64,000 bases of DNA from a bacterium (GCA_030649135.1 JAUSGI010000004.1:32001-96000), one strand, 5' to 3'; positions 4,431-61,651 are shown, counted from the stretch's first letter. Notes: generated by a model from the sequence alone, not told the origin. Numbers and translations are program-made.

Positions 4431-4464
4431 AAGTCTATCTTAATACGCGTGCTAGAATAGTCCA

Positions 4465-6099
4465 ATGCAGCATTTCCCTGAATTATTTGAGACCCTGCTT
4501 AAACAGCGAGGCATCCTACCGGAGGAACAAGAAGATTTTTTGAGTCCTGACTATGAGAAGCTTTATGACCCCTTACTTCTGCCGGATATGCTCAAAGCTC
4601 GTGACAGAGTAATTAAAGCTATTAAGAACAATGAGCATATTGTCATCTTCTCCGACTATGACTGTGACGGCTTGCCGGGCGCGGTGGTATTCTCTGATTT
4701 TTTTGTGAGGATGAATTATGAAAACGTATCATTCTATATTCCACACAGGCATGATGAAGGCTTCGGTCTCAATCTCGGCGCGATAGAAGAAATCGCCGCC
4801 CGTGGCGCCGGACTCATGATTACTATCGATTGCGGTATCGCCAATACGGCGGAAGTGGCGTTCGCCAACGATAAGGGTATTGATGTTATCATCACCGACC
4901 ATCACAAACCGAACCCGACTCTGCCGGCGGCTTATGCTGTCGTCAATCAGAATAGGGAAGATTCAGATTATCCGTTCAAAGGACTCTGCGGCGCAGCCGT
5001 GGCGTTCAAGTTGGTGCAGGCTATAACCGCCCACGAAACTTTCGGCGTGAAGCCGGGTATGGAAAAGTGGTCTCTTGATATGGTGGCCATCGCCACACTC
5101 TCGGATATGGTACCGCTGACGGGTGAGAACAGAATTCTCGCAAGCTTTGGACTTAGTGTCTTGCGCAAATCTCCGCGACCCGGTCTGGCGGCACTTTTCA
5201 AAAGAATGAATCTCGACCAGAGAACTGTTTCGGAGGACGATGTTACATTCATGATTACCCCGCGCATTAATGCCGCCTCGCGCATGGGTATGCCGGAGGA
5301 TGCCTTCAAACTCTTGAAGACCAAAGACCACGAAGAAGCCGAGAGACTGGCTCTTCACCTAGAGAAAATCAACAATGAACGCAAAGGGGTGGTAGCAAGC
5401 GTTGTAAAAGAAGCTAAGTCACATTTAGCAAAACGCGAAGTGATTACCGATGTGATTGTGATCGGTAATCCGGATTGGCGTCCCGCGCTTCTGGGTTTGG
5501 TAGCAAATTCTTTGGTTGAGGAATATGAGAGGCCGGCATTTGTCTGGGGTCGAAGCGGTGACGGAACACTTAAAGGTTCGTGCCGTTCGTACAATGGCCA
5601 TGACCTGTTTGCTCTGATGAGTGTTACTGGTGATGCATTCGTGGAGTTTGGCGGACATGCCGGAGCTGGCGGCTTTTCTGTCACCCTCGAGAGTCTCACT
5701 ACGCTTGAAGAGAGGCTGTCCCAAGCTCTACCCGATTTGGGGGCCGGACTCACAGAGGCAGATGTGCCCGCTCTCCATATAAAATTGGACGATATCGGGG
5801 ACCACCTCTGGAGTCTCGTCTCACGATTTGCGCCGTTCGGCATGGGAAACGAGAAACCTGTTTTTAAAATTCCGCAAGCGGAAATCAAATCGGTAAAAAG
5901 ATTTGGCAAGGAGAATAATCATCTGGAACTTATGTTTAACGGCGGAGTCAAGGCTATTTCTTTTTTCTCCGACCCTGCTTCATACTCCGTCCTCCTTACT
6001 CCCGGCACTCGTATTTCTCTGCTTGCCAATCTAGAAAAATCTTTTTTCCGTAATCGTCCCGAATTGCGCTTGAGGATTGTTGATATCGTAGAATCATGA
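4465..6099 (+). CDS. recJ: single-stranded-DNA-specific exonuclease RecJ
   Basis: DHH-family motifs (DYDCDGL, ITDHH); 544 aa. Confidence 0.9.
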   Translation: MQHFPELFETLLKQRGILPEEQEDFLSPDYEKLYDPLLLPDMLKARDRVIKAIKNNEHIVIFSDYDCDGLPGAVVFSDFFVRMNYENVSFYIPHRHDEGFGLNLGAIEEIAARGAGLMITIDCGIANTAEVAFANDKGIDVIITDHHKPNPTLPAAYAVVNQNREDSDYPFKGLCGAAVAFKLVQAITAHETFGVKPGMEKWSLDMVAIATLSDMVPLTGENRILASFGLSVLRKSPRPGLAALFKRMNLDQRTVSEDDVTFMITPRINAASRMGMPEDAFKLLKTKDHEEAERLALHLEKINNERKGVVASVVKEAKSHLAKREVITDVIVIGNPDWRPALLGLVANSLVEEYERPAFVWGRSGDGTLKGSCRSYNGHDLFALMSVTGDAFVEFGGHAGAGGFSVTLESLTTLEERLSQALPDLGAGLTEADVPALHIKLDDIGDHLWSLVSRFAPFGMGNEKPVFKIPQAEIKSVKRFGKENNHLELMFNGGVKAISFFSDPASYSVLLTPGTRISLLANLEKSFFRNRPELRLRIVDIVES

Positions 6100-11043: not shown

Positions 11044-12420
11044 CTAGAGTCCGAGTTTCTGCTTCCATCGTTCCGCAACAGCCCTCGCTTTCTTGGGGGC
11101 GATGCCGATATAGAGTGATGGATTCGAGATGACGCTTCGCTGGCGTGGCGTCATCTTCTCGAGGTAGTCCGCCAACTCCGCATCACCCATGACCACCTCC
11201 TCGAGTGGTCGCGATTCGCGTCTAGCTTGGCGCGCCAGGATTCGCACCTTCTCGTGGGCATGAGAATGTCCCAGCGCGGAGAGAATGAGCTGTAACGGCT
11301 CGGCGGCAGTCCCTCCCTTCGTCATGTTGAGATTTCTCTGAAGGTTTTCATGGTTCACCGTGAGTTTATTCATCACTCTCGTCAGGCGTTTAGCCATGGA
11401 AAAGACGTAGGCCACAACCTCGCCATAAGTTCGGGCCGAGGCGGAGTTCGTGAGGTCGCGTTGGTGTTCGCTGATCTGATCAAGGAACACAGTAATGATG
11501 CGCGGCATGACGACCTTCCAGAGACTCTTGGCGTTCTCAAAGTTGATGGGGTTCATCTTCTGCGGCATAGTCGAGGAGCCGACCTGGTCCTCTTCGACTG
11601 GTTCTCCTACCTCAGCGATTTCTGTGCGCTGGAGATGGCGCATATCGTCGGCGAGATTGGCCAGTATGCCGGCAGTAATGGTGACTTCACAGAGAAGACG
11701 CGTCATCGCTTCGGGCGGTACAATCTGGGTTGAGTATTCGGCCGGGATGAGTCCCATCTCGGCAAGTACTTCAGCTTCGAAGACCTCTGGGTCGTCGAAG
11801 AAGAGCGAAGAAGCGTTGTATGCTCCGACTGCTCCCGAGAACTTCCCGGGGAGTTTATCAGCACGAAGCTTCAGCTCTTCGATTGAACCGCCGATGCGAC
11901 TGACGTACTCGGCGATTGCGAAGCCGAACGAGGTCGGGACCGCATGCTGACCATGGGTTCTTCCGGCTTGGGGTGTCTCGGCTTCGTTGTCGGCGAGTGT
12001 GATAAGGACTTTTTCCAACTCGATGAGCGCTGGGATGACCACAATTTCGACAACGTGCTTGTAGCGTGCAGCGTTGGCCGATTCGATGATATCGAATGAT
12101 GTTGCCGATAGATGGACAAACGGTTTCGCGCGATCGCTCAGTCTCGTCTGGATGCGATTCACGAGAGCTCGGATGTCATGCCCGATTCGACCTTCCTCAT
12201 CGTACACTTCTTCGGTCACGACTTCGCCACAGGCCGCCACGATTTCACGCAAAGTGTCTTCGGAGCAAACTCCCCGGCGCTCTAATACGGTTGCAAGTGC
12301 TCGCTCCACACGGAGCTTGTAACGGGTGAACCCGTTCTCGGAGAGATACTTCGCTACTTCGGCATCCCAGTATCGATAATCGATCGGTGAAAGGCTGTCG
12401 AACACATCACGCATTCTCAT
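11044..12420 (-). CDS. purB: adenylosuccinate lyase (G+C-rich gene)
   Basis: SPIDYRY (cf. SPLDGRY), GRTHGQHAVPTSFG and fumarate-lyase signature GSSTMPQKMNP; start taken at MRMRD (ORF opens at 12504). Confidence 0.85.
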   Translation of the reverse strand: MRMRDVFDSLSPIDYRYWDAEVAKYLSENGFTRYKLRVERALATVLERRGVCSEDTLREIVAACGEVVTEEVYDEEGRIGHDIRALVNRIQTRLSDRAKPFVHLSATSFDIIESANAARYKHVVEIVVIPALIELEKVLITLADNEAETPQAGRTHGQHAVPTSFGFAIAEYVSRIGGSIEELKLRADKLPGKFSGAVGAYNASSLFFDDPEVFEAEVLAEMGLIPAEYSTQIVPPEAMTRLLCEVTITAGILANLADDMRHLQRTEIAEVGEPVEEDQVGSSTMPQKMNPINFENAKSLWKVVMPRIITVFLDQISEHQRDLTNSASARTYGEVVAYVFSMAKRLTRVMNKLTVNHENLQRNLNMTKGGTAAEPLQLILSALGHSHAHEKVRILARQARRESRPLEEVVMGDAELADYLEKMTPRQRSVISNPSLYIGIAPKKARAVAERWKQKLGL

Positions 12421-12481
12421 ATCATCCTCCTGTAAAGGTGCGATTCTCGAAACAAAAACTTCGTGTTCCTCGCTAAACCTA

Positions 12482-12688
12482 TCAGTTTCCACCCATCTTT
12501 TCAATCAGCAGTCCGAGTTGCTCATGTATGACTTTTGCTTCGGCAAGGGTCACATTATTTTCCGTATTGGACGTGGGTCCTGATATAAAAATTGAGACTC
12601 CTTTGATACCTTCTATGTCTTTCGCACTTACTTGGACATCAATTGCGTTCCCAAGTTCGTTTATAAATTTTTTCTCGTATTTCTGCAT
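12482..12688 (-). CDS. hypothetical small protein (68 aa)
   Basis: A+T-rich ORF with plausible coding composition; no recognised motif. Confidence 0.3.
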   Translation of the reverse strand: MQKYEKKFINELGNAIDVQVSAKDIEGIKGVSIFISGPTSNTENNVTLAEAKVIHEQLGLLIEKMGGN

Positions 12689-23824: not shown

Positions 23825-23896
23825 GTAATGTTGACGCCAGCTTCTCGTTAGTGTATAATGTAGGTAGGAGTACCAAGAATTACCAGGAGGGGGGAC

Positions 23897-24322
23897 ATGA
23901 CAGTTGCGGGAACGTTGTTTAACAAGTTGTTGAGGGTGTGCGGCAAGCGGGTGGTCGACTCCGCTAGCAACAGGAAGGAGTTCGTCGACAACGGCACCTT
24001 GTTTCCGGTGCCCAACATCGGCCAGGAGATGTACCTATTCCCGGTCACTCGCCGTCTCACCGGTGATGAGGCAGAGGACGCCTATGCATCTTTTGGCCTC
24101 GAAGCTGCCGGGTGGGAGGAGCTCGCTCTGGCCAATGACGCCAACCCTGCCATGGCGTCAGAGAGACCCAACGCCACTCAATGGCGGGATCGGGGGCGGT
24201 GGTGCTACATCACCTTCTCCGAGCCTGGGGAGAACTATCTCCTTCGGGCGGGGAAGGTCGATAGGTGGGACCCCGGGTGGTGGCTCGCAGGTCGTCCCAT
24301 CAAGTGGGACGAGTACCGGTAA
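23897..24322 (+). CDS. hypothetical protein (G+C-rich cassette at the rplB|rplJ junction)
   Basis: extended -10 TGTATAAT and CAGGAGGGGGG SD upstream; W-rich 141-aa product; hairpin terminator follows. Confidence 0.4.
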   Translation: MTVAGTLFNKLLRVCGKRVVDSASNRKEFVDNGTLFPVPNIGQEMYLFPVTRRLTGDEAEDAYASFGLEAAGWEELALANDANPAMASERPNATQWRDRGRWCYITFSEPGENYLLRAGKVDRWDPGWWLAGRPIKWDEYR

Positions 24323-24362
24323 TTCGGGGTCTGGGCGTTCGGACAGTCGTCCGAACGCCCTT
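24322..24362 (+). terminator. perfect hairpin terminator
   Basis: gggcgttcggacagtcgtccgaacgccc followed by ttttcgttt. Confidence 0.6.
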
Positions 24363-24479
24363 TTCGTTTGTATACTTGCATTAAATTTTTATTCCTGTAA
24401 GGTATTTCTCCATAAGGTCAAAGACAGTAGGCATCCATAAGCCCTACCGAGACTAAACCACTCTGGCCTTATTAAATTA

Positions 24480-24968
24480 ATGGCCATTTCGAAAGCCAAA
24501 AAGGGAGAAGTGCTCACGAAGCTTAAGGCGGCCTTCAAAAGTGCCAAGTCTTTGGTGTTCATTAACTTTAAGGGCTTGAATGTGGCCAATGCCACTCAAA
24601 TGCGCCGTGCTCTCAAAAGTGAAGGTATTTCTTACACGGTTGCCAAAAAGACTCTAACCAACTTAGCGCTTGAGGGAGAGAAGTTTCAGGGCACAGCACC
24701 AGTGCTCGAAGGTGAGTTAGCTCTTGCGTGGGGAGAAGACTTGGTGGCTCCGGCTCGCGGAGTTTATGGTTTCCAGAAAAAGTTTCCGGAGAGTCTCAAG
24801 ATTATGGGTGGAGTCTTCGAAGGTCGTTTTATGACGGCAGTCGAAATGGAGGAGATTGCCCAGATTCCTACGCTCGAGGTGCTTCGCGGCAAGTTCGTCA
24901 ATATTATTAATTCCCCGATACAGCGCTTTGTGATTGGGCTTAATGAAATTAGTAAGATTAAGAGTTAA
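24480..24968 (+). CDS. rplJ: ribosomal protein L10
   Basis: L10-like N-terminus MAISKAKKGEVLTKLKAAFKSAKSLVF; directly upstream of L7/L12. Confidence 0.85.
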   Translation: MAISKAKKGEVLTKLKAAFKSAKSLVFINFKGLNVANATQMRRALKSEGISYTVAKKTLTNLALEGEKFQGTAPVLEGELALAWGEDLVAPARGVYGFQKKFPESLKIMGGVFEGRFMTAVEMEEIAQIPTLEVLRGKFVNIINSPIQRFVIGLNEISKIKS

Positions 24969-24972
24969 AAAC

Positions 24973-25386
24973 ATGGAAGATACACAAAATACAAATACCG
25001 AAATAGTTAAGGAAGTTCCTACAAAGTTCAAAAAGATTGTTGAAGAAGTTGAGACCATGTCGGTACTTGAACTCAATGAACTGGTGAAAGTTTTCGAAAA
25101 CAAGTTCGGAGTTTCTGCTACAGCTGTAGCCGCGCCCGCCTCCGCGCAAGGCTCCGGCGAGGCAATAGAAGAGAAATTGACAGCAAGCGTGGAGCTCACT
25201 AATAGCGGTGCCAACAAAATCGCCATCATCAAGGTGGTCAAAGAAGTGCTCGGCCTCGGTCTCAAAGAAGCTAAGGACCTCGTCGATGCTGCTCCCTCGA
25301 TGCTTAAAGCAGACATGAAGAAAGAAGAGGCAGAAGCGCTCAAAAAGCAGATAGAAGACGCTGGTGGTAAAGTGACGCTCAAGTAG
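24973..25386 (+). CDS. rplL: ribosomal protein L7/L12
   Basis: C-terminal KVVKEVLGLGLKEAKDLVDAAP...EEAEALKKQIEDAGGKVTLK. Confidence 0.9.
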   Translation: MEDTQNTNTEIVKEVPTKFKKIVEEVETMSVLELNELVKVFENKFGVSATAVAAPASAQGSGEAIEEKLTASVELTNSGANKIAIIKVVKEVLGLGLKEAKDLVDAAPSMLKADMKKEEAEALKKQIEDAGGKVTLK

Positions 25387-25398
25387 TAGAATGGGCGC

Positions 25399-25956
25399 AT
25401 GAAATCCGTTTCCCACATCTTCGGCGGAGAGGCCAAAGTAAAGATTATGCGCCTGTTTATCTTTAACCCAGGTCTCACTTTTACTTCCGCTGAAGTGGCC
25501 CACCGTGCCAAAGAGAGACCTCATACGGCCCGCAAGGAACTTAGAATTCTCGCCAAGGCGGGTCTCATCAAGCGACGCACGAAGGGCTTTGCTCTCAACT
25601 CTTCCTACCTGTATCTTCCCGCGATTGAAAATTTTCTGATAGATGCCACGCCCATCACGGAGAAAGAGATAATCCAGAAAGTTTCTCGCGCCGGCAACAT
25701 CAGACTTGTCTTAATTTCCGGTGTCTTTCTACATGACCGTGATTCTCGTGTGGACATCCTCGTCGTGGGGGACCATCTCAAAGGAGCCAAACTCTTGTCG
25801 GCTATATCATCGATTGAAGCTCTCTTGGGCAAGGAGTTGCGTTATGCCGCTTTCGAGACCGCCGATTTCCGATATCGTCTGGGTATCTACGACAAGCTTA
25901 TTAGAGATATTCTGGACTACCAGCACGAGAAGATTCTTAATAAATTGGGTATTTAA
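25399..25956 (+). CDS. winged-helix regulator-like protein
   Basis: N-terminal HTH-like segment (TSAEVAHRAKERPHTARKELRILAKAGLIKR); C-terminal domain of unknown function; CCCCGCC-TTGG-CGGGG hairpin follows. Confidence 0.4.
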   Translation: MKSVSHIFGGEAKVKIMRLFIFNPGLTFTSAEVAHRAKERPHTARKELRILAKAGLIKRRTKGFALNSSYLYLPAIENFLIDATPITEKEIIQKVSRAGNIRLVLISGVFLHDRDSRVDILVVGDHLKGAKLLSAISSIEALLGKELRYAAFETADFRYRLGIYDKLIRDILDYQHEKILNKLGI

Positions 25957-26116
25957 CCCCGCTTCACCCCGCCTTGGCGGGGCAAGCGGCGGGGCAGGAT
26001 TATCCACACCCCAATAAACCTCGTATTTTATAGGTGTATAATGAATCGCGTACCCCTTTTAGAGTGGTCACAATTAGAAGCTAAGTGCATTTGCACAGAC
26101 ATCGAGCTAAGAATAT

Positions 26117-26815
26117 ATGTTATTAAACACATGGGGAGAAGTGCTAACCCTTTCCTTCCAGAATCTTTGGGTAGGAGTGGTTAACTTTGTCCCGAACCTT
26201 GTTATTGCTATCGTCATCCTTATCCTAGGATGGTTAGTTGGCGCGCTTATCGGCCGAGCAATTTGGCAAGTGTTCAAGTCTCTGAAAGTTGATGACGCTC
26301 TTCGCCAGGCGGGATTCGACTCTTTTGTGCGTCGTGGAGGTATTGACCTTGATTCCGGCGCGTTTGTTGGTGGTTTGGTGAAGTGGTTTGTGATAGTGAT
26401 GTTTTTAGTGGCAGCTCTGGATGTTTTAGGCCTTTCACAAGTCAACTTCTTCCTCCAAGACGTAGTACTTGGCTATTTGCCTCGTGTACTCGCTGCGGCT
26501 TTGGTTCTCTTGGTGGCTGGCGTTATCGGTGATGTCACCGGACGTGTGGTTGTCACAGCAGCTCGGACGGCAGGTATTGATTCAGCACATTTTGTGGGTG
26601 CTGTGGCCAAGTGGGCCATCTGGATTTTCGCCATTCTCGTAGCTCTTTCCCAACTGGGTATTGCTGCGGCGTTTAGTCAGACTCTCTTCACAGGCATTGT
26701 CATCGCGGTCTCTCTCGCCCTCGGTCTCTCCTTCGGTCTCGGCGGACAGGAAGCGGCATCTCGCTTCCTCGAAAAGCTTCGCGGAGAAATGAGTGGTAAA
26801 AACCACAACGGTTAA
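26117..26815 (+). CDS. integral membrane protein with repeated conserved-TM-helix units (mechanosensitive-channel-associated type)
   Basis: repeated ~30-aa hydrophobic helix units; terminator hairpin at 26860-26890. Confidence 0.5.
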   Translation: MLLNTWGEVLTLSFQNLWVGVVNFVPNLVIAIVILILGWLVGALIGRAIWQVFKSLKVDDALRQAGFDSFVRRGGIDLDSGAFVGGLVKWFVIVMFLVAALDVLGLSQVNFFLQDVVLGYLPRVLAAALVLLVAGVIGDVTGRVVVTAARTAGIDSAHFVGAVAKWAIWIFAILVALSQLGIAAAFSQTLFTGIVIAVSLALGLSFGLGGQEAASRFLEKLRGEMSGKNHNG

Positions 26816-26996
26816 CCTCGAGGTATTACTTAGCTAGATAATACCCGGATAATCTGTAGGGAAGAGCCCGTTTTCGGGCTCTTTTCTGTTCTATTGACTT
26901 TTAAACCTCATTGTGATATGATTAGGGCAGGATGGGCATTGGCCCATAAGACGATCTTCGTTTACTACCTTCAAGGCTACACCTTAGGAGAGTGTC

Positions 26997-27506
26997 ATGA
27001 GCGTAGTGGAGAAAGCCGAACTCTCGCCAATCCTGGGTAGCGTACCGGTCGTGATGTTTTTCTTCAACGTCACCGACAAGAGGCTCGTGCCTTGGTGGGC
27101 GAAGACCGTGTCGGGCCTCGAGCAGAAGCCGGCCACCGAAGGTCAGCCCTCCGGTGTCGAGTTGATCAGGGGCAAGCACGTGAATCTCTATTCCGTTCTC
27201 GACGAGATCGGAGAGCAGGGATTCATTCCGGTCCGGCTCCTCGTCATCGAGAGGGGTCAAGGTAGGGTTCGTATGGCCCTGGTGTGCGTTCACTCGGATC
27301 ACCTGAAAGAGGGCGATCGACGGATGCCCCGGAGAGAGGAAGCTGATGTACGGGGGCTTCTCAAGAAGCTCTGGGACGTTCGGGTTCATCGTAACCCGGG
27401 CGAGCACGGAGGGAACTTCATCATCGGGTGTGCCTACCCGGCGATGGGGAATTCCAGGGGCAAGCTGCTCGTCGCCGACGGGCAGTTCCGGTTGGAGACG
27501 AAGTAG
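26997..27506 (+). CDS. hypothetical protein (G+C-rich cassette upstream of rpsS)
   Basis: AGGAGA SD; 169 aa; GC hairpin at 27513-27552. Confidence 0.4.
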   Translation: MSVVEKAELSPILGSVPVVMFFFNVTDKRLVPWWAKTVSGLEQKPATEGQPSGVELIRGKHVNLYSVLDEIGEQGFIPVRLLVIERGQGRVRMALVCVHSDHLKEGDRRMPRREEADVRGLLKKLWDVRVHRNPGEHGGNFIIGCAYPAMGNSRGKLLVADGQFRLETK

Positions 27507-27613
27507 CTGTGAGGTCTGGACCGGGGGCGCAACGCGCGCTCCCGGTCCTTTACTTTTTACGTTGATTTATATACTATATCCCGCATAGCTCGCTCGAGCT
27601 TTTTCATTTAATA

Positions 27614-30229: not shown

Positions 30230-30454
30230 ATGCATGTAAAAAAGGGAGACAACGTAATAGTTTTAACGGGAAAAGATAAAGGTAAGATTGGTAAAATCTT
30301 GCGCGCCTTTCCAAAACAAGACCAAGTGCTGGTGGAAGGGGTGAATACCAAAAAGGTTCACGAACGGCCGAAAAAGAGTGGCGCCAAAGGTACCATTATC
30401 GAAAAGAATTTTCCCATTCACGTCTCTAATGTAAAAATCCATGGAAAATCTTAG
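30230..30454 (+). CDS. rplX: ribosomal protein L24
   Basis: [23 protein letters not shown] motif. Confidence 0.9.
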
Positions 30455-30953
30455 AGAAAAATCAAAAACGATTCCGGGTTATAAAAACCCCATGCAGGCG
30501 CCACGAGTTTTGAAGGTGGTGGTCTCTTCCGGAGTCGGTTCATTTAAAGACAAGAACAAATTTAAAGTAGTGGAAGACCGTCTGGCGCGTATTACCGGAC
30601 AGAAAGCAGCCCCACGAGGAGCTAAAATTTCGATCGCTACTTTCAAATCTCGACAAGGAGACATTGTGGGCTACCAAGTAACTTTGCGTGGCAAGCGTAT
30701 GTACGATTTTTTGGACAGATTAGTACATCTTGCCCTTCCGCGCACCAAAGACTTCCGTGGTATTTCCCCGAACGCTGTTGATGAGATGGGCAATTATACT
30801 TTGGGTATCAAAGAACACAACATTTTTCCCGAAACTTCCGACGAAGAGCTTAAAGACGTCTTCGGTCTCGCTGTGACCATCGTCACTACCGCCAAGTCCA
30901 AAGAAGAAGTGCTCGCTTTCCTTGCCCATCTCGGTTTCCCGTTCAAGAAGTAG
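30441..30953 (+). CDS. rplE: ribosomal protein L5
   Basis: L5-like; canonical position. Confidence 0.95.
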
Positions 30954-30984
30954 AAGTTATCTACATTATATAAAATAGAAAAAT

Positions 30985-31015
30985 CCCCGCGCACAGTGCT
31001 CTGTGCGCGGGGGTC
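30985..31015. terminator. bidirectional hairpin between rplE (+) and the HNH gene (-)
   Basis: ccccgcgcacagtgctctgtgcgcgggg. Confidence 0.55.
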
Positions 31016-31033
31016 TGAAATTGTGACGGATAG

Positions 31034-31630
31034 CTATGAGTCCGACAGGATGCGAACATCCGCTTCTGCCGTCGGGCCCTTTTGTGTCAGGAAAGCGATG
31101 GCGCGGGCGAGTAACGCCGGGCTGTCCCGGAACATGGATAGTCCCATGTTGCAGAGCTTGCAGAGCAATGCCATTCTTCTCGCGCCGTAGTGCGCCGCCC
31201 CATAGAGCGAAAGTGGCAATGCCTGCCCAATCTCATCGCATGAGGTTTCGGGCTGGCTGCAGATCGCGCACCGACCACCCTGCTTCTTGAAGAGTTCATT
31301 GTAGTGACCGTTCATTTTCACGGCAGGGTGCGGATGGGTCTGCGCAAGTGGCGGAGCTGCTGATATGACAGCAGGCAATCCCGTGCTCACACCATCGTGG
31401 AGCTTGCAGTTTTGTCTGGTCCTGATGCTACCCCCATATGGGTATGTCCCAAACTCCTCGATTGGCCTGTTTTCTCCGCACTCCTTGCAAGGTCTTGTTT
31501 CCATACCAACCTGCTTTCCTTCCTGAACGTGAAGGTTGCAATCTCGCTGTGCACGACCTCCCGCACCAAGCTTGAAACTGTCCAATGGCCTCATTTTCTC
31601 GCACTTAATGCAGTATCTTTTCCCTCCCAT
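31034..31630 (-). CDS. Endonuclease-VII/HNH-type zinc-finger nuclease (free-standing, G+C-rich) inserted between rplE and rpsN
   Basis: multiple CxxC pairs; C-terminal GHYNELFKKQGGRCAICSQPE...AHYGARRMALLCKLCNMGLSMF matches the Endo VII pattern (W/Y..Q.G.CaiC...H.G..RGLLC..CN.GLG.F). Confidence 0.6.
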   Translation of the reverse strand: MGGKRYCIKCEKMRPLDSFKLGAGGRAQRDCNLHVQEGKQVGMETRPCKECGENRPIEEFGTYPYGGSIRTRQNCKLHDGVSTGLPAVISAAPPLAQTHPHPAVKMNGHYNELFKKQGGRCAICSQPETSCDEIGQALPLSLYGAAHYGARRMALLCKLCNMGLSMFRDSPALLARAIAFLTQKGPTAEADVRILSDS

Positions 31631-31729
31631 GCCATGCTCCCTTCTTTAGGGACGGCAACCAATATGGTCGTCTGAACTTGAGTCTGGCGCGAATCCTACA
31701 TTGTGTCCACGGGTATGGCAAGTCTAAGG

Positions 31730-31758
31730 TTTGACAATACCCCTTTCAGTTGATAAGC
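31730..31758 (+). promoter_or_regulatory. re-start promoter TTGACA-N17-TAAGCT for rpsN and downstream spc genes
   Basis: ttgacaatacccctttcagttgataagct lies downstream of the convergent HNH insertion. Confidence 0.45.
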
Positions 31759-31795
31759 TGAAACGCGAGCTTTTCGAAGCTTTTTTAGTTTAATT

Positions 31796-31981
31796 ATGGC
31801 CAAAACGTCAGTTATTGCTCGGTCGAAAAAGAAGCCCAAGTTCTCCACTAGGGCGACTTCACGCTGTTTCCGTTGCGGCAGGGGCCGCGGTTACATGCGC
31901 GACTTCGACCTTTGTCGTATCTGCTTTCGGGAGCTTGCCAATGAAGGTAAGATTCCGGGTGTAAAAAAGTCTTCTTGGTAA
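31796..31981 (+). CDS. rpsN: ribosomal protein S14 (Zn-binding short Z-type)
   Basis: CxxC...CxxC with RGYMRDF; 61 aa. Confidence 0.9.
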
Positions 31982-31987
31982 TTTCAT

Positions 31988-32374
31988 ATGGATACGATTT
32001 CAAACATGATTATCCAAATCAAGAATGCCGGTCTCACCGGGCATGACCGTGTATTGGTGCCTTACTCCAAACTGAGACACTCCATAGCGGAGGCGTTGAA
32101 GAAAGAGCACTTCATCAAAGATGTCGAAACCGAATCAGAGAAAGGTAGGAAAATGTTGGCCGTAGGTTTGTTCATGGAAAATCGCGTGCCGAAAATTAAG
32201 GGAGTGAAGCGTATTTCCAAACCTTCCAGACGAATTTACAAGAAAGCTTCCGAGATTCGCGGGGTGAAAAGTGGTTACGGCGCCCTGATACTTTCCACCT
32301 CTAAAGGCATTATGTCCGGTCGCGAGGCCAAGCGGGCCAGTCTTGGCGGCGAAGCTCTGTTTCAAATCTGGTAA
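31988..32374 (+). CDS. rpsH: ribosomal protein S8
   Basis: MDTISNMIIQIKNA N-terminus. Confidence 0.9.
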   Translation: MDTISNMIIQIKNAGLTGHDRVLVPYSKLRHSIAEALKKEHFIKDVETESEKGRKMLAVGLFMENRVPKIKGVKRISKPSRRIYKKASEIRGVKSGYGALILSTSKGIMSGREAKRASLGGEALFQIW

Positions 32375-54177: not shown

Positions 54178-55410
54178 ATGGCGCGAGAAAAGACCATTTT
54201 ACATATGGATGGAGATGCCTTCTTCGTCGCCTGTGAGGTCTCGAAGAATCCCAAGCTCAAGGGTAAAGCAGTGGTGACAGGCGAGGAGCGCGGGATAGTC
54301 TCGGCCCTCTCATACGAAGCGAAGGCGCTTGGGGTAGTTAGAGGCATGCCGATATTTTCCTTGCGCAAATCGTTTCCAAGTGTCTTAGTGCTGCCGGGAG
54401 ATTATGCTTGTTACGCGCGACTCTCGGGAGAAATGTTTGACATCGTGAGGAGGTATGCCGACGAGGTCGAGGAGTACAGTATCGATGAGTGTTTCGCCGA
54501 TCTCTCCGGCCTAGATAAGCCGCTTAAAATGAGTTATAGAGAAATTGCGGAGCGGATAAAGAAAGAAATCGAAAGCGAACTTAGACTCTCTGTCTCTATC
54601 GGGCTCGGGCCCTCAAAGGGGCTCGCCAAGGTGGCGTCGAAGTGGCAGAAGCCCAATGGTCTTACAGTGATAGAAGCAAAGACGGCCCCAGATTTTCTCA
54701 AAAAGACTCCGATTGAGAAAATCTGGGGCATCGGCCCGCGCACAGCAGAGTTTCTAAAGAAGAAAGGAATAGGAACTGCCGGCGAGTTCGCCTCGCGTGA
54801 ACTCGCCTGGGTCAGAAAGGAACTTTCCAAACCTTACGAAGTTATTTGGAGAGAGCTCAACGGTGAATACATCATGGAGTTAGACCCCTTGCCGAAGACT
54901 GTCTATTCCTCTGTCCAGAAGACAAGGACATTTCACCCGGCGACAGGGGACAAAGTCTTTCTCCTCTCCGAACTTTCTAAGCATGTGGAAGAAGCGTGCC
55001 GCAAGGCGAGGTACTACCACCTCGTACCGAAGAAGTTTTCTTTTTTCCTCAAGAGCCAGAGCTTCAAATATTTCTCTTACAATATAAATCTTCCCTCGCC
55101 CACTAATGCTCCGGAGACGCTGGTCGCTCTAGTCCGTAAACATTTCAAAGAAGTTTGGAGAGAGGGAATACTCTTCCGTACCACTGGAGTGGTGTTGCAA
55201 GAGCTTGCTCCGAGAGCGGCAATGCAGGGAGATTTGTTCGGAGGCTCCGATAGAGCCGGTAAGTTTGAAAAGATTCATGGTCAGATCGACGCTCTGGAAG
55301 AGAAGTTCGGCAAGTCGGTAGTCTATCTCGCCTCCACTCACCAGTCCCTGAAGCGTAAAAAGGTCGGCACCGACTCCGACGACCTCGACCGCAACCTGCT
55401 GTTTTTGTGA
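54178..55410 (+). CDS. dinB: Y-family DNA polymerase IV
   Basis: ILHMDGDAFFVACE...; little-finger domain; ~410 aa. Confidence 0.9.
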   Translation: MAREKTILHMDGDAFFVACEVSKNPKLKGKAVVTGEERGIVSALSYEAKALGVVRGMPIFSLRKSFPSVLVLPGDYACYARLSGEMFDIVRRYADEVEEYSIDECFADLSGLDKPLKMSYREIAERIKKEIESELRLSVSIGLGPSKGLAKVASKWQKPNGLTVIEAKTAPDFLKKTPIEKIWGIGPRTAEFLKKKGIGTAGEFASRELAWVRKELSKPYEVIWRELNGEYIMELDPLPKTVYSSVQKTRTFHPATGDKVFLLSELSKHVEEACRKARYYHLVPKKFSFFLKSQSFKYFSYNINLPSPTNAPETLVALVRKHFKEVWREGILFRTTGVVLQELAPRAAMQGDLFGGSDRAGKFEKIHGQIDALEEKFGKSVVYLASTHQSLKRKKVGTDSDDLDRNLLFL

Positions 55411-55412
55411 GG

Positions 55413-55442
55413 GTTTGTTTTAAGCCAAAATTTGTGGGATTA
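55413..55442 (+). promoter_or_regulatory. conserved promoter/operator motif, copy 2 (ATPase gene)
   Basis: GTTTGTTTTAAGCCAAAATTTGTGGGATTA. Confidence 0.55.
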
Positions 55443-55460
55443 TTTTGTGCAAGTATATTT

Positions 55461-56606
55461 ATGGATGTAGAAATAAAGAAACAACCAAAAACCAGCATTA
55501 CTGAGGATATTGATTGTGTAATTAAGCTTGAGCCACTTACAATTTTTGCTGGGAATAATAATTCAGGTAAGACTCATTTGATTAACGCTATAGGGAAAAA
55601 ACTGTCTGAGAATGACATAAATGTTGTGCATATCCCAAGTGAGAGGATACTTGTAGAGAATGAATTGAAGACAGGAGCAGAAAAGGATCCATTAAGAGCG
55701 GCTCTCGGTGATTTGATTGAGTTTGCTTTTGATGCCGACAGTTCAATCTCTAGTGATGTTTCTGATATCTCAGTAATACTTCCTGCTGAATTTATACAAT
55801 ATGGTATTGAGAATATAGATATTTCGGTAAAGACAAACACTCTCACTAACGATGAATATAAAAAAGCTTTAAAAGATGCTCACATAAAAAAGCTTATCGA
55901 TTCCATAGTTATATCTGACAAATACTGTGGAGTTGAGGACATAAGTCCATCAAATGTGGGTCAAGGAACACAAAGAATGATTGTCGTTTCTCTAATTAGA
56001 TATCTACAGCGTAAAAAATTTGAGAAGGATGGTCGAACAAGTAAACCAACATATATTATTTTTGAAGAACCAGAGATATACCTTCACCCAAAAATGAAGG
56101 CAACCTTGTATGCACTAATTCAAGCCATAGCTAATGATGGAAGATTGAATACTAAAGTTATCTTAACTACCCACGACCCATACTTTATTGATATGGGTAG
56201 AAATGCAAAAATTTATCGGGTCTTTAGGGATCCTTTGAAGAATTTTTCTACACAATTAATGGATGTACAAAAAGACGTATTACTGTACCCATCTTCTGCA
56301 GAAATAAACTATATTGTATTTGAGCAGGTTAGCCCTACTTATTTACTTGAATTGTATGAAAGTAAAAAACAAGAAACTGAATTAAAGCTTGGAAAGAAGT
56401 TGGGAGGTCTTAAGTATTATGAATTCGATCTAGCTTTATTTAATAAAATTGGAGAACCTCAATCTTCTACTGATGATGATGGACATCCCGTTACGTTTAT
56501 AACTCGGATAAGGCATGATATGGCACACCCCTCTACCTCCATATTAGATTCTTTTGAGTCTAGAGGAAAGGAAGCTATTGAAAAATTAAGAAATTACAAA
56601 GCTTAA
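55461..56606 (+). CDS. AAA15/AAA21-type ABC-like ATPase (PtuA/OLD-N-terminal-like)
   Basis: Walker A GNNNSGKT; Q-loop/signature-like NVGQGTQR; Walker B TYIIFEEPEIYLHP; H-loop LTTHDP. Confidence 0.7.
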   Translation: MDVEIKKQPKTSITEDIDCVIKLEPLTIFAGNNNSGKTHLINAIGKKLSENDINVVHIPSERILVENELKTGAEKDPLRAALGDLIEFAFDADSSISSDVSDISVILPAEFIQYGIENIDISVKTNTLTNDEYKKALKDAHIKKLIDSIVISDKYCGVEDISPSNVGQGTQRMIVVSLIRYLQRKKFEKDGRTSKPTYIIFEEPEIYLHPKMKATLYALIQAIANDGRLNTKVILTTHDPYFIDMGRNAKIYRVFRDPLKNFSTQLMDVQKDVLLYPSSAEINYIVFEQVSPTYLLELYESKKQETELKLGKKLGGLKYYEFDLALFNKIGEPQSSTDDDGHPVTFITRIRHDMAHPSTSILDSFESRGKEAIEKLRNYKA

Positions 56607-56610
56607 ATCT

Positions 56611-56640
56611 GTTTGTAAAACTCTAAAATTTGTGGGATAT
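56611..56640 (+). promoter_or_regulatory. conserved promoter/operator motif, copy 3 (HNH gene)
   Basis: GTTTGTAAAACTCTAAAATTTGTGGGATAT followed by a GGAGG SD. Confidence 0.55.
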
Positions 56641-56653
56641 TTGGAGGACAAAC

Positions 56654-57841
56654 ATGGAAGATGAAATAAAGCGATATTTTGAGGGCATAGATCTTGATAT
56701 TCGGAAGCAATCTCGGGGCTATTCACGCTTCATGGATCAGAAAGTTGCTCCAGATGTCCTGTCTTTTATTGCTGATTCTGTAGTCAATTCTATGGATGGA
56801 AAGGAGCCTGGTACCACCTTTACCATTGGTGATGTATGGGAGTTTCCTTACTTTGTAAAAAATACAGAAGCTGTATTCGGGAAACCCTCTCCAGAAAATG
56901 AAACCACGGAATCTGAGTATGATAAATTTATCGCCCAGCCCTTAAAAACCCTTGCTTTTGCTAAGATTCTGGAAGAAGAAAAAGTTGGAGGGAAAAATAC
57001 ATATAAGGTTCTAAGGCCCGATATTTTGGAGTATATTTCTCAAAGCGAGAAAAACGCCTTTATATTTTTAGTCCTCTATATTGAAAAGGTTTTATCTGAC
57101 AGTGGATTCATAAAAAACTTCGAGGAATATAGGGAAAAGGCGCAGTCAAATAAACTAAAACCAGAAGATCTTGAAATATTAAAAAAAAGATTCCAAAAAT
57201 TCATTTTGGGCAATACCAATATAAATGGCGTAATAGAAATAAATAGAGTATTTCCGAAAGTTCTAAATCCTTATGCAGCTTCACATCAAATTCCAGGAAT
57301 AGAAAGGGGGCACATAACTTCTGGTAGATTTATTTACCCAGATCTCATGTATAACCGAGAAAATTTTAGGGACATTGGAAAAGACAAGACTGTAAGTAGA
57401 CAAGAAGCGTTAAGAGAAATTACTCAGCAGCCAGAAGTTGTTGAATATCGAGTTCAAAAAGCAAAAAGTATTATACGGCGCCATCATTCAAGTAGTGAGG
57501 TTAAGGATAGCTTGGCAGTAGGCGAAGCGACTCAGGTTCATCATATTTTTTCAGACCATGAATTTCCTGAAATATCTGATTATATTGAAAACCTTATTTT
57601 ACTAACACCTCAGCAGCACAACACAAGAGCTCATCCAAAAAATAAAACAAATACCGTTGACGCAGAGTATCAAAGGGAATGCTTGTTATCTAAAATTGAT
57701 TCGATTGAGATGTCCGTAAGTAAGCGAGACAGCCTGTATTCTAAGGAAAGATTTATACACGTTGTGAATATTGGCTATGAACTTGATCTCTCGACAAATA
57801 CTAGTTTTGAAGAATTGAGAGATATTATTCGAAAGAGATAG
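56654..57841 (+). CDS. HNH-motif protein (PtuB-like partner) with a large N-terminal domain of unknown function
   Basis: C-terminal region QVHHIFSDHEFPEISDYIENLILLTPQQHNTRAH (HH...N...H); start at MEDEIKRYF (the listed ORF uses an upstream TTG). Confidence 0.55.
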   Translation: MEDEIKRYFEGIDLDIRKQSRGYSRFMDQKVAPDVLSFIADSVVNSMDGKEPGTTFTIGDVWEFPYFVKNTEAVFGKPSPENETTESEYDKFIAQPLKTLAFAKILEEEKVGGKNTYKVLRPDILEYISQSEKNAFIFLVLYIEKVLSDSGFIKNFEEYREKAQSNKLKPEDLEILKKRFQKFILGNTNINGVIEINRVFPKVLNPYAASHQIPGIERGHITSGRFIYPDLMYNRENFRDIGKDKTVSRQEALREITQQPEVVEYRVQKAKSIIRRHHSSSEVKDSLAVGEATQVHHIFSDHEFPEISDYIENLILLTPQQHNTRAHPKNKTNTVDAEYQRECLLSKIDSIEMSVSKRDSLYSKERFIHVVNIGYELDLSTNTSFEELRDIIRKR

Positions 57842-57845
57842 TTTT

Positions 57846-60365
57846 CTAGCGATTTATGCCAAAAAAGAATACTGAATTATTGTCGATGTTTAAAGATCTG
57901 GTACCGTGATTCCTTGCTACTCGATAAAATTGGGTGAATTCGTCTGTTCCAAAATAATCAAGGTCTTTTAGAGTTATCTTAGCTCCGGGTTCTTTTAGGG
58001 TGAGGATTGCCACAGACCCATCAACAAGCGTGTTCTCTGGTAAAAATGAAGCTCTGGGAGCATAGGTCAGGTTTGGCACCAAGACGCTATTTTCTTTATT
58101 CCAAAACTTAGAGATTGATAACCCGTCTAACGAATCAACATAAGAGTCATAATTTGGAATGTTCAGGATCTCATTTCGTCCGATATTTCTTGATTTCAAT
58201 ATTCTTATTTTCCCCTTGTTTTTTGTTATCTTTTTTGTAATTTGTCGATCTCTGTAAGATGTAAATATATTGAATCGAAGTTTTTTTGCAACGAAGTCAA
58301 AGAATTCATTTCTGTACACCAACCAGTAAGGAAAATCTTTCGAACAAATATAAGATTGATCTTTATAACCAATTTCGTTTTTTACATAAGACTCAACGAG
58401 AGTCCGGGCCCCTTTATTACGAGTATTGATAATCAAACTGATTGTCTCAATCTTCACACCCCTGAACCCTTTTTCTCCATAGTCTGTGATTTTTTCAATG
58501 GCAAATGACGAAGCAAGTTCTCTTGTTTTGTTAAATTCGGGTGCTGATAGAAAACTTTTGGGAATAATAAGACCTACGGTATCTCCTTGTTGCATTGCTT
58601 TCTCGAGAAAAAAAGAAAATAGATTATTTGTTTCGGCATTATATTTATTCTTCTTATAAGTGTTTAGGAGAACTTTATTTTCAGATATATCTCCGAATGG
58701 TGGATTGCCAATAACGATATCGTATCTTTTAGATTGGCCAAATAAATTAGTCTCTCCATGCAATAGAAAATCTGCGTTAATTAAATTGATCTTGATATTT
58801 TTTGGAACATCAAGTTTTTTTAGTAAAAGTTTAAGAATCTCAATTGCATTTTTGTCGATATCAACTACATCAATAGTTACCTCCTTAACTGTTTTATATT
58901 TTTGAACAAGAAGCGGGAGAAAATTACCAGCACCGACTGATGGTTCTAATATAGAAAGTTTTTCAAACTTTGATACATCAGGAAGATCTTTTACTATAGT
59001 GAAGCAAATGTCCTGTCTGGTGTAATACGCGGCGTGCTGAAGACGTTGGGCATTTGAAAGCTCGACGATTTTAGCTAATTCGGGGTAGCTAAAATTTTGC
59101 ATATTCTCTTCGAGAAAAGTCTTAATATTTTCTTCTATATTAAGCCTTTCATCTTGGATTAATTTTTTTATTTGGATTTCATTATTTTCAACATTTCTAA
59201 GCTTTGACTTGATATTTTTAGCTATACCGTTGAATATAATTGTGGGGACTGCCTCACCTAGTGATTGTCTTATATTTATCTCTTCTTTCTTGAGAATTTT
59301 CCTCTTTTCTTCATTTGACAACTTATTTAATTCATCAAGCGGAGTAGATACCCAATTAAAAGAATCTGGTACGGACATCATTCTCATTAACTCTCTAATA
59401 CTAAATACCCTGTTATCTTTTGGATGAATGGTTGCTTGGCTCGCAAATATATCGTTTCGGGTATGTATACAAGGAGCAACTTTATCCCAATAACATCGTG
59501 AGTATTTATCTCCGTTCTTGTTTTCATTGTGTACAATCTTTCCGTTTATGATTTGGTGAGGTCGCTTTTTGGCATCAGTATTATCAAACGCAGATTGTCC
59601 CTCCTTGGTATTCTCAATCCAAGAAAGCATATGCTCAGCGTACGGACGAAAATTGTGATAGATGTCCTTTTTATCAATCTCACCCATATTTTTAAGAGAT
59701 GAAAGGTTGCCTATCGTATCACGCAAGGTACCACCATCTTTCAATACTGGCATTAGATCAAGAGGTGTAACTTCTTGAATATCTTTTCGTACTCCTATAA
59801 CGAGTGTTCGGGTTCTACTCGATGGATTACCATAATCTTTGAAATTGATTACTTGATAGTGGATGTTATATTTACCTCCAAGATTTACTTCAATTGCTTC
59901 ACGAATTTGTTTTTGTTTCTTATCGATGTCAGTGCAGAGTGTAGATAGAAAAGCCCTCACATTCTCAAATATAAAAACTTTCGGTCTAATTTCATCTACA
60001 ATTTTTATTGATTCAACGACAAGAGAATTTCGTTCAAGCTCATCCCTTTTTTTGTGATTGGCTACAGACATACCCTGACATGGGGGTGTTGCCAATAAAA
60101 CTTCAACTTCTTTTAAACCTTGCTTTGATTTCCAGAGATCAATTTCTGAAAATATTTTTTCTTGAGTGGCTTTTTTTGTGATGTCATCAGCAATATAACC
60201 ACTTGGATATAAACACTTATTATTATGTCTTTGCACATCCAAACGTCTGTTCATAAGTTCAACAGTTGCAACACAATCAAATCCTTCTTTAGAAAAACCA
60301 TAGCAACCAACGCCGGCGCTACTGAATAAACTTATATATGTTAATTTTTTATTTTGGTTTTTCAT
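57846..60365 (-). CDS. fused DNA methyltransferase: N-terminal C5-cytosine MTase plus C-terminal N6-adenine (gamma-class) MTase
   Basis: C5 motifs: I (FSSAGVG), IV (PPCQGMS), VI (FENVRAF), X-like (GEAVP). N6A motifs: I (LEPSVGAGNF), IV (NPPFG). 839 aa. Confidence 0.75.
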   Translation of the reverse strand: MKNQNKKLTYISLFSSAGVGCYGFSKEGFDCVATVELMNRRLDVQRHNNKCLYPSGYIADDITKKATQEKIFSEIDLWKSKQGLKEVEVLLATPPCQGMSVANHKKRDELERNSLVVESIKIVDEIRPKVFIFENVRAFLSTLCTDIDKKQKQIREAIEVNLGGKYNIHYQVINFKDYGNPSSRTRTLVIGVRKDIQEVTPLDLMPVLKDGGTLRDTIGNLSSLKNMGEIDKKDIYHNFRPYAEHMLSWIENTKEGQSAFDNTDAKKRPHQIINGKIVHNENKNGDKYSRCYWDKVAPCIHTRNDIFASQATIHPKDNRVFSIRELMRMMSVPDSFNWVSTPLDELNKLSNEEKRKILKKEEINIRQSLGEAVPTIIFNGIAKNIKSKLRNVENNEIQIKKLIQDERLNIEENIKTFLEENMQNFSYPELAKIVELSNAQRLQHAAYYTRQDICFTIVKDLPDVSKFEKLSILEPSVGAGNFLPLLVQKYKTVKEVTIDVVDIDKNAIEILKLLLKKLDVPKNIKINLINADFLLHGETNLFGQSKRYDIVIGNPPFGDISENKVLLNTYKKNKYNAETNNLFSFFLEKAMQQGDTVGLIIPKSFLSAPEFNKTRELASSFAIEKITDYGEKGFRGVKIETISLIINTRNKGARTLVESYVKNEIGYKDQSYICSKDFPYWLVYRNEFFDFVAKKLRFNIFTSYRDRQITKKITKNKGKIRILKSRNIGRNEILNIPNYDSYVDSLDGLSISKFWNKENSVLVPNLTYAPRASFLPENTLVDGSVAILTLKEPGAKITLKDLDYFGTDEFTQFYRVARNHGTRSLNIDNNSVFFFGINR

Positions 60366-60369
60366 GAAT

Positions 60370-60984: not shown

Positions 60985-61085
60985 GGAGGTATACTTCCAT
61001 TATAGAAGGAAAATAGAAGGTCTACAAGACCTACTTATCCACACCTCCTATATAAAGATCGAATTAGTAATAGTTCTAAAAAAAT

Positions 61086-61292
61086 ATGGCAAAACCTAAA
61101 TACATAGCAAAGTCTGGTCAGCCTTGGGCTCCAGCTGAAGTAAAACAGTTGAAAAGCATGGGAGGCAGGGTGCCTACTGGCGTTATTGGTTTGAAACTTC
61201 AGAGACCAGTTGCAGGAGTACGGGCAAAAGCTCAAGAAATCGGCATGAGTTTGAAGCCGGTAAATAAATCGCCACGATCAAAGCTTAAATAG
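61086..61292 (+). CDS. hypothetical small basic protein
   Basis: 68 aa; no motif recognised. Confidence 0.3.
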   Translation: MAKPKYIAKSGQPWAPAEVKQLKSMGGRVPTGVIGLKLQRPVAGVRAKAQEIGMSLKPVNKSPRSKLK

Positions 61293-61650: not shown

Positions 61651-61651
61651 T

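Follow-up and report, generated by a model that had tools for sequence, protein, structure and literature searches.

An endonuclease VII-like gene under purifying selection, without the canonical Asp-His dyad, between rplE and rpsN of a Patescibacteria chromosome

What does a gene of the endonuclease VII (Endo VII) family do in the middle of a ribosomal-protein gene cluster, and does its product still cut DNA? The question is raised by a 64,000-nt stretch of the chromosome of an uncultured Patescibacteria bacterium (GCA_030649135.1 JAUSGI010000004.1:32001-96000, the window below), in which a 198-aa open reading frame (ORF) at 31034-31630 on the minus strand is the sole ORF inside the 842-bp gap from rplE to rpsN. 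The gene is convergent with rplE and divergent from rpsN. The first-pass annotation had described a cysteine-rich protein with an Endo VII pattern in a gap of about 840 bp and explained it by a homing-endonuclease-like selfish gene invading a conserved locus. The ORF, the gap and the quoted motif, present in the translation as ...GRCAICSQPETSCDEIGQALPLSLYGAAHYGARRMALLCKLCNMGLSMF, are real, and the invasion reading is supported in part. Our own proposal, which we hold at slightly better than even confidence, is that the protein is a retired, or domesticated, nuclease scaffold that would act as a DNA-binding protein.

Domain identity and loss of the catalytic dyad

The C-terminal part of the protein belongs to the Pfam family Endonuclease_7 (PF02945). 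Residues 109-182 score 33.1 bits, above the gathering cut-off of 23.6 (E = 5e-8), the PHROG families named "endonuclease VII" match the protein down to 1.4e-15, and all 12 homologues have a precomputed PF02945 hit. The description of the gene as a free-standing, cysteine-rich member of the Endo VII family is thus borne out by the Pfam match, its distant relatives being free-standing Endo VII genes of phages. Among solved structures the restriction enzyme Hpy99I is the best relative (profile E = 1.9e-6); T4 endonuclease VII comes next, with a profile match that is weak (E = 0.08) and spans only residues 11-63 of the T4 protein. The structure search made with an AlphaFold2 (AF2) model of moderate quality (predicted local distance difference test, pLDDT, 65.6) gave weak matches only.

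The cysteines of the structural zinc (C121, C124, C157, C160) are invariant in the alignment of homologues (alignment A1), and N161 is kept in 11 of its 12 sequences, with Ser in P0012. N-terminal to this domain are zinc ribbons of the form CxxC...Cxx(H/C), two in the window protein and three in one homologue. Beta-strands are predicted by AF2 in the first ribbon with pLDDT 75-80; in the second, C48, C51 and C75 are conserved without exception, and either His or Cys serves as the fourth ligand. The ribbon profiles weakly match the first repeat of Hpy99I and the plant SBP zinc fingers. The PADLOC defence models and NCBIfam gave no hits to the 198-aa protein.

The superfamily alignment sets the canonical L.VDHDH.TG.VRGLLC..CN.GLG.F.D.P.LL against LSLYGAAHYG.R..GLLCKLCNMGLSMFRDSPALL, that is, the window protein reads LYGAAH where the canonical sequence reads VDHDH. 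The register was anchored on the second CxxC, and there is no indel from beta-strand 1 to that point. HMMER independently pairs His147 with His151 of Hpy99I (chain index 161; in the published numbering HDHNH stands at 147-151, PMC2699513), which places Gly-Ala on Asp148-His149. The dyad positions hold DH in 129 of the 159 retrieved proteins and GA in 14, the latter forming one tight family; from about a dozen more relatives DH is missing in some other manner.

The catalytic metal of Hpy99I is bound by Asp148 and Asn165, and His149 acts as the general base; each of the mutants D148A, H149A and N165A is inactive, and the equivalent residues of T4 endonuclease VII are Asp40, His41 and Asn62 (PMC2699513). 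Since Gly-Ala occupies the Asp-His positions and the equivalent single mutants of Hpy99I are inactive, canonical catalysis by the 198-aa protein seems very unlikely. The motif quoted initially thus gives no support to an active homing nuclease, since it lacks the catalytic Asp-His, Gly-Ala being invariant in the tight family.

Two known activities of related enzymes were considered for this protein and rejected. A Holliday junction resolvase of the T4 endonuclease VII type was rejected, as the equivalents of D40 and H41 are absent. A type II restriction enzyme similar to Hpy99I was rejected as well, since no methyltransferase gene is adjacent, the neighbours being only rplE and rpsN, and PADLOC yields no hits.

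The family is narrow. In a search covering 1.84 billion representative proteins it has only 6 representatives at E < 1e-30, followed by a steep drop, and the canonical superfamily numbers 48,376 representatives at E up to 0.001, with a zinc ribbon plus an Endo VII domain as the common layout. Members of the tight family are seen only in cellular contigs, and the identifiable ones are Patescibacteria. In P0016, a relative that also lacks DH, a helix-turn-helix replaces the zinc ribbons; more distant relatives without DH are solitary chromosomal genes in assorted contexts.

We propose the following scenario. The ancestry of the gene would lie among the free-standing Endo VII/HNH genes abundant in phages. 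One lineage, so far made up of Patescibacteria-type cellular contigs, has swapped the catalytic Asp-His for Gly-Ala, while all four structural zinc ligands, the Asn of the helix and the scaffold around them are retained. Most likely its protein has lost the ability to cleave DNA by the canonical one-metal mechanism, and its present function would be sequence-specific DNA binding, kept by purifying selection. The equivalent positions in the first, non-catalytic repeat of Hpy99I serve to read bases (PMC2699513). The gene could have arrived by homing of an active ancestor or by recombination through the highly conserved flanks.

Age and selection

L001, a metagenomic relative collinear with the window from rpsS to secY, carries an orthologue of the gene, identically placed and oriented. 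The proteins are 78% identical over 196 aligned codons (75% by BLASTP), the frame is intact in both genomes, the ratio of non-synonymous to synonymous divergence (dN/dS) is 0.08, and dS is about 1.6, that is, saturated. For the flanking ribosomal genes the protein identity is 92-99%, dN/dS is 0.01-0.05 and dS is 0.6-1.6. Across homologues of 44-78% identity the GA replacement and about 40 further positions are invariant. The gene is under purifying selection, as measured by dN/dS; the collinearity and the dS value, taken together with it, argue that the gene was already present in the common ancestor of the window genome and L001. It would then be neither a recent invader nor a decaying remnant. 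A recent invasion by a selfish gene is contradicted by the same collinear orthologue, the saturated dS and the dN/dS value.

The missing dyad could also be the mark of a dead homing endonuclease, functionless and heading for deletion, the more so as homing endonuclease genes commonly degrade after fixation, according to PMC13619312. A remnant of this kind is hard to reconcile with dN/dS of 0.08 over a saturated synonymous distance and an intact frame in both genomes, with the invariance of GA and of the other conserved positions, and with expression signals that are intact. This explanation is strongly disfavoured, and we consider it extremely improbable.

The rplE-rpsN junction in relatives

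The window carries a tuf-S10-spc cluster in the order tuf, rpsJ, rplC, rplD, rplB ... rpsS, rplV, rpsC ... rplN, rplX, rplE and, after the gap, rpsN, rpsH, rplF ... secY, adk, map, ndk. The best L5 matches, 84-90% identical, come from metagenome-assembled genomes (MAGs) labelled Zambryskibacteria, Parcubacteria or Patescibacteria. The rplE neighbourhoods of 80 species-representative relatives were compared, and 65 loci with both rplE and rpsN could be scored. No homologue of the Endo VII-like gene was found in the rplE neighbourhood of the 80 relatives. At the junction itself the gene is present in the window and L001 and absent from all 65 scorable relatives, so it is far from universal at this position, and the comparison yields both empty and occupied sites, as the first-pass annotation had anticipated.

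In the 65 loci the rplE stop and the rpsN start are separated by anything between 20 and 3233 nt (median 239): the distance is up to 30 nt in 13 loci, 31-150 nt in 14, 151-500 nt in 13, 501-1500 nt in 16 and over 1500 nt in 9. The site is essentially empty, with 20-23 nt, in 13 of 65 relatives; in one of them (L016) the junction reads ...TTTAAGAAATAA-TGTGTTAAAATCGCACCCTA-ATGGCC... The spacers of the nine closest such relatives start with TGTGTTA(A/G/C)(A/T)AT, which reads as an extended -10 element, and the other four minimal spacers (L035, L037, L041, L058) read TATTCTAATCCC...

The larger gaps hold diverse cargo: a HigB-like toxin and its partner gene, a protein similar to PaaX/Cas2, a reverse transcriptase, an IS200-like transposase, prephenate dehydratase, membrane proteins and many ORFs of no known family. 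The IS200-like ORF fills the slot in L087 and is related to the Y1 transposase found in L008 and L097. In L001 a prephenate dehydratase gene (3610-4485) stands inside the ribosomal cluster, between the Endo VII-like gene and rpsN; the 1.47-kb segment that carries it replaces positions 31656-31771 (116 bp) of the window. Hence the rplE-rpsN junction is a general insertion hotspot, and, because the slot holds unrelated cargo, its occupancy alone is no sign of homing. Of the proposed homing at a conserved locus, the presence/absence polymorphism of a single gene holds up, whereas the slot proved to be a hotspot with unrelated cargo.

This variability is what one would expect if the gene were passive cargo, brought in by homologous recombination through near-identical ribosomal-protein flanks, for instance after natural transformation, with its own product taking no part in the spread and serving a cellular role that has nothing to do with the ribosomal genes. 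The slot is extremely variable, with the toxin-antitoxin pair, the reverse transcriptase and the IS200-like gene among its contents; the prephenate dehydratase segment makes a second difference between L001 and the window in the same slot; the flanking genes are 92-99% identical at the protein level between these two; and natural competence is reported for Saccharibacteria in PMC10187176. The location of homologues in quite different spacers is left unexplained, however, and nothing is said about the function of the protein. As a full account it seems quite improbable to us, though it is compatible with a domesticated scaffold rather than exclusive of it.

Homologues at other sites

Members of the family stand at no fewer than seven sites, among them rplE-rpsN, infA-rpmJ, groEL and ftsH; at least in this respect, the picture of a family found at different places adjoining conserved genes is accurate. 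Apart from the window and L001 (100% and 75% identity), the largest set occurs in the P0004/P0005 group of Parcubacteria (L002-L008, L094, L096, L097), where the gene, about 55% identical, lies between infA and rpmJ-rpsM, co-directional with them, and has a terminator of its own and a TTAAGCT promoter-like site behind it. In L002, for example, the homologue is located between a terminator and the TTAAGCT promoter-like site 5' of rpmJ. The remaining homologues are upstream of dcd-dut-rplY (L009, 52-54%), between groEL and LemA-rpoB (L092, 45%), upstream of an EPSP-synthase-fold gene and def (L093, 51%), near murI (L095) and convergent with ftsH (L098, 41%). An IS200/IS605-type Y1 transposase gene stands between infA and the homologue in L008 (1608-2321) and L097 (1581-2294), which form one Parcubacteria lineage, and is not seen in the closely related contigs L002-L007.

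A search of viral contigs turned up no member of the tight family; the viral relatives there are canonical and at most 44% identical over the C-terminal domain, and DH is retained in 60 of the 63 recognisable viral relatives. A phage origin of the tight clade was rejected for now, since the viral contigs hold canonical Asp-His relatives.

Several observations weigh against a retired nuclease. All members have GA(A/N/D)H and yet occupy at least seven different sites. Since they already carry GA at all these sites, the gene must have moved several times after the loss of the dyad, which is the strongest argument that the element may still be mobile by some means; such relocation is easier to explain with a mobile element that is still active. 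The family retains H147, the equivalent of T4 H43, and N161, and it has its own invariants, D132, E133 and Y143. The AF2-predicted beta-strand 1 ends with H147, at the usual place of the general base; the model is of only moderate confidence (pLDDT 65.6). Finally, only 25 bp upstream of the ATG align between the window and L001, and no operator-like sequence upstream of the gene was found to be conserved between the two.

These observations bring in another explanation, a free-standing homing endonuclease or nickase that is active with a rewired site. H147 or Y143 would serve as the base or nucleophile, and N161 together with D132/E133 would hold the metal. The enzyme would cut a conserved sequence in or near rplE/rpsN of genomes that lack the gene and would spread by repair-mediated copying, members at other sites having evolved other targets. 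A rewired site may exist, because H147 ends the predicted strand and because in PacI, a His-Me finger nuclease, Tyr takes the place of the general-base His and the enzyme is still active (PMC5714182). The family-specific invariants, the single-gene insertion polymorphic at one site, the relatedness to free-standing Endo VII genes of phages, and the homologues of 41-55% identity in spacers by infA-rpmJ, groEL, ftsH, rplY and murA/def, which moved in the GA form, agree with this as well. On the other hand, Gly-Ala falls exactly on Asp-His with no indel, and in Hpy99I each of the corresponding single mutations abolishes activity. Vertical inheritance of the gene together with its flanks spans dS of about 1.6 under strong constraint, unlike what an invasion-decay cycle would produce; the slot is filled by many unrelated genes that need no nuclease; and the tight family has no relative in viral contigs. 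Degraded copies are lacking as well: no remnants of the gene or of its junctions were found in the 80 relatives by blastn-short and relaxed tblastn, the only match being the rpsN leader. We therefore regard a rewired nuclease as rather unlikely, though a serious contender, and keep the retired scaffold as the preferred explanation.

The rpsN promoter and leader

The promoter reported upstream of rpsN, TTGACA-N17-TAAGCT, is real. The pattern is expected by chance 0.1 times, and it has counterparts in relatives without the Endo VII-like gene, of the form TTGACA/TTGAAT, N17, then TG.TAAGCT or TAGTAT; the TG extension is present, and the -10 element is TAAGCT, TAGTAT or TAGGAT. The window -10 shares only three of six positions with TATAAT and hence was not listed by the consensus scan. 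The other TTGAC-N17-19-TAnnnT sites of the window are mostly similar to TATAAT (TATAAT, TATGAT, TACACT, TATACT), and TAAGCT occurs only at 31754-31759. The sequence (G/T)TAAGCT is kept upstream of rpsN in the closest relatives and upstream of rpmJ in L002 (about 5715-5722); both genes downstream of these sites encode zinc-ribbon ribosomal proteins (S14, L36).

Roughly at the transcription start there is a leader hairpin followed by a T-run, ending about 7-17 nt before the ATG in relatives, and no obvious Shine-Dalgarno sequence is seen in the leader. The hairpin with the T-run is present in 31 of 40 relatives whose spacer exceeds 60 nt, against 6.4 +/- 2.2 in composition-preserving (mononucleotide) shuffles. 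Since the relatives have 25 distinct stems, the leader appears to be conserved as structure rather than as sequence. It is seen upstream of rpsN in the window (31731-31795) and in L001, L010, L012-L015, L017, L020, L022, L025, L029, L030, L032, L033, L036, L038-L040, L042, L043, L050, L054, L056, L057, L059, L077, L082 and L087, and it has no Rfam match. It could insulate, as a terminator, against transcription reading through from rplE or from the cargo, stabilise the 5' end, or serve as an attenuator controlled by a ribosomal protein.

As the promoter and the leader hairpin stand in relatives without the gene, the promoter predates the insertion, and the cluster is split into two transcription units at rplE-rpsN throughout the clade; insertions are consequently tolerated at this boundary. 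The statement of the first-pass annotation that rpsN, once separated, needs its own promoter thus reverses cause and effect. In terms of our scenario, the junction would be a pre-existing transcription-unit boundary, with its promoter and leader, at which many different genes accumulate.

The position of the gene suggests a more specific role. In the window it is divergent from the TAAGCT promoter of rpsN-rpsH-..., and in another lineage it lies upstream of the rpmJ-rpsM TTAAGCT site. Conceivably the whole clade lacking DH, so far represented in Patescibacteria MAGs and in unassigned metagenome contigs, was recruited in ultra-small bacteria as a zinc-finger DNA-binding factor, either a regulator of ribosomal-protein units or a protector against homing nucleases, but we consider this unlikely. 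If it were so, the domestication would be the first of its kind in the Endonuclease_7 group. In the literature we found no description of a DNA-binding derivative of this group, of a DH-less Endonuclease_7 clade, or of Endo VII-like genes in ribosomal-protein clusters of bacteria of the candidate phyla radiation (CPR). The known homing endonucleases of CPR bacteria lie in rRNA and tRNA introns.

Organization of the gene

The coordinates of all features are collected in Table 1. The Endo VII-like gene is a self-contained unit with its own promoter-like site, Shine-Dalgarno sequence and terminator. The putative promoter stands back to back with that of rpsN. The terminator hairpin lies between the convergent rplE and Endo VII-like genes, and in L001 a compensatory change preserves its pairing. 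Only for the Endo VII-like gene does it form a canonical terminator, since the T-run follows the stem on the minus strand alone; on the rplE side there is the hairpin with a preceding A-run. The hairpin reported initially is therefore real, and its bidirectionality is only partly right.

Table 1. Features of the rplE-rpsN region of the window
Feature	Position	Strand	Basis
rplE (uL5), left flank, last gene of the upstream transcription unit	30441..30953	+	Pfam Ribosomal_L5, L5_C; 92% amino acid identity to L001
Terminator hairpin of the Endo VII-like gene	30985..31012	-	perfect 12-bp GC-rich stem, 4-nt loop, T-run
Coding sequence, two zinc ribbons and Endo VII-like (His-Me finger) domain	31034..31630	-	Pfam, PHROG, homologue alignment, dN/dS versus L001
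Endo VII-like domain (predicted beta-beta-alpha), residues 107-184	31079..31312	-	Zn ligands C121, C124, C157, C160; N161 equivalent to T4 N62
Codons Gly144-Ala145 at the canonical catalytic Asp-His positions	31196..31201	-	register comparison with 129 canonical relatives; HMMER alignment to Hpy99I
Linker, residues 80-106	31313..31393	-	length-variable in alignment A1; pLDDT <50 for residues 81-106
Zinc ribbon 2, residues 46-79 (C48, C51, C75, H78)	31394..31495	-	alignment A1
Zinc ribbon 1, residues 5-35 (C7, C10, C31, H34)	31526..31618	-	CxxC...CxxH kept in homologues having the segment
Shine-Dalgarno AAGGGAG, 6 nt 5' of the ATG (31630)	31637..31643	-	direct sequence reading
Putative promoter of the Endo VII-like gene, TTGCCA-17-TAGGAT	31693..31721	-	consensus scan, 9/12 matches; function putative
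rpsN promoter TTGACA-N17-TAAGCT, TG two bases 5' of the -10	31731..31759	+	pattern match; homologous promoters in relatives without the gene
rpsN leader hairpin GAGCTT-TTCG-AAGCTT, then T-run, 9 nt before the ATG	31767..31786	+	kept as structure in relatives
rpsN (uS14, zinc-binding short form, 61 aa), right flank, first gene of the downstream unit	31796..31981	+	Pfam Ribosomal_S14

The NCBI annotation (MDO8589807.1) gives a 156-aa "endonuclease domain-containing protein" that starts at Met43 and thereby loses the first zinc ribbon. The 198-aa form, also called from a Logan assembly (P0160), includes this ribbon and is conserved in homologues. Because of this conservation, the 198-aa start is the better call.

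The gene is moderately GC-rich, with GC content 0.55 and GC content at third codon positions (GC3) 0.62, compared to GC3 of 0.43-0.57 in the neighbours. It has no paralogues in the window by tblastn, and two further 198-aa ORFs there are unrelated, the same length being a coincidence. A search for terminal repeats and target-site duplications around the gene gave only short matches of the size expected by chance and nothing that would point to a transposon. Nor was an integrase seen, rplE and rpsN being the immediate neighbours; tRNA genes were not scanned. Known RNA families yielded no match in 30800-32100 at E up to 1.

Other variable segments of the window

The ribosomal cluster of the window genome is broken at several junctions beyond rplE-rpsN. 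A segment of about 3.8 kb (23825-27613) interrupts the S10 cluster between rplB and rpsS. It holds a 141-aa ORF of no family, rplJ (L10, 24480-24968), a gene of PF05552, the family of mechanosensitive-channel transmembrane helices, and ORF169, as well as a 185-aa ORF (25399-25956) that matches the PADLOC candidate defence family PDC-M05A with E = 1e-13.

ORF169 (26997-27506, plus strand, 169 aa) occupies a second variable slot, 26950-27558, between the PF05552 gene and rpsS. It has no Pfam, PADLOC or NCBIfam hit, its GC3 is 0.765 against about 0.5 in the neighbours, and a promoter-like site of its own lies at 26894-26922. This slot does not align to L001, where a different 188-aa ORF stands. 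The ORF169 segment looks like a recent foreign acquisition.

Elsewhere in the window, a block of about 7 kb (55000-62000) has GC content 0.33-0.36 compared to the mean of 0.46, and a 486-aa ORF at 11044-12504 falls within a 1-kb bin of GC content 0.57.

Significance and comparison with known systems

If the gene indeed encodes a retired Endo VII maintained by selection, it would add a case from bacteria in which the scaffold of a selfish nuclease was converted to DNA binding, and the domestication would have occurred in very small genomes, where each retained gene calls for an explanation. WhiA is a DNA-binding protein derived from the scaffold of LAGLIDADG homing endonucleases. If instead a rewired site keeps the protein active, the His-Me finger would gain a new catalytic variant that bears comparison with PacI. 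In both cases, a profile match alone is no ground for annotating such proteins as active endonucleases. The rplE-rpsN junction, in turn, is a promoter-bearing, highly permissive slot across Paceibacteria-type Patescibacteria; this helps to interpret "insertions" in clusters of ribosomal-protein markers, and the slot might be used as a neutral landing site for genetic tools.

The window protein resembles the His-Me finger group 13 (PF02945; T4 endonuclease VII, Hpy99I) in having two CxxC pairs with a structural zinc, a predicted beta-hairpin followed by a helix, and Asn right after the second CxxC. Its PET motif and the C-terminal helix ...F.D.P.LL..AI.YL are common to thousands of relatives. 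It also resembles Hpy99I, whose first repeat reads DNA, in the extra zinc-ribbon modules N-terminal to the domain. The difference is in the dyad, which is D40/H41 in T4 endonuclease VII and D148/H149 in Hpy99I, but Gly-Ala in the window protein. Further, unlike Hpy99I, the window gene has no methyltransferase gene nearby, and unlike T4 endonuclease VII, the window protein has no detected C-terminal dimerisation helices and its gene no phage context.

The free-standing HNH/Endo VII homing genes of phages (T4 mobE-type; "endonuclease VII" of T7-like phages) are similarly small, solitary and located in spacers between conserved genes. They share with the window family the patchy distribution over different sites, about 30% identity and the layout of a zinc ribbon plus an Endo VII domain. 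However, the phage genes keep VDH(D/C/S)H, whereas the window gene is chromosomal, in a Patescibacteria MAG, and shows long vertical inheritance and strong constraint.

The closest functional parallel is the MH1 domain of Smad, a His-Me finger that lost its His and became a DNA-binding transcription factor (PMC5714182): a conserved nuclease scaffold without the catalytic His could still bind DNA. Smad MH1 is eukaryotic and belongs to another His-Me subgroup, and for the window family we infer the binding. PacI provides the opposite parallel. It lacks the general-base His and uses Tyr instead (PMC5714182), and in the window family Tyr143, which precedes the missing His by two residues, is invariant; but the Tyr of PacI is in the omega-loop, not in beta-strand 1, and there is no sequence relationship beyond the fold.

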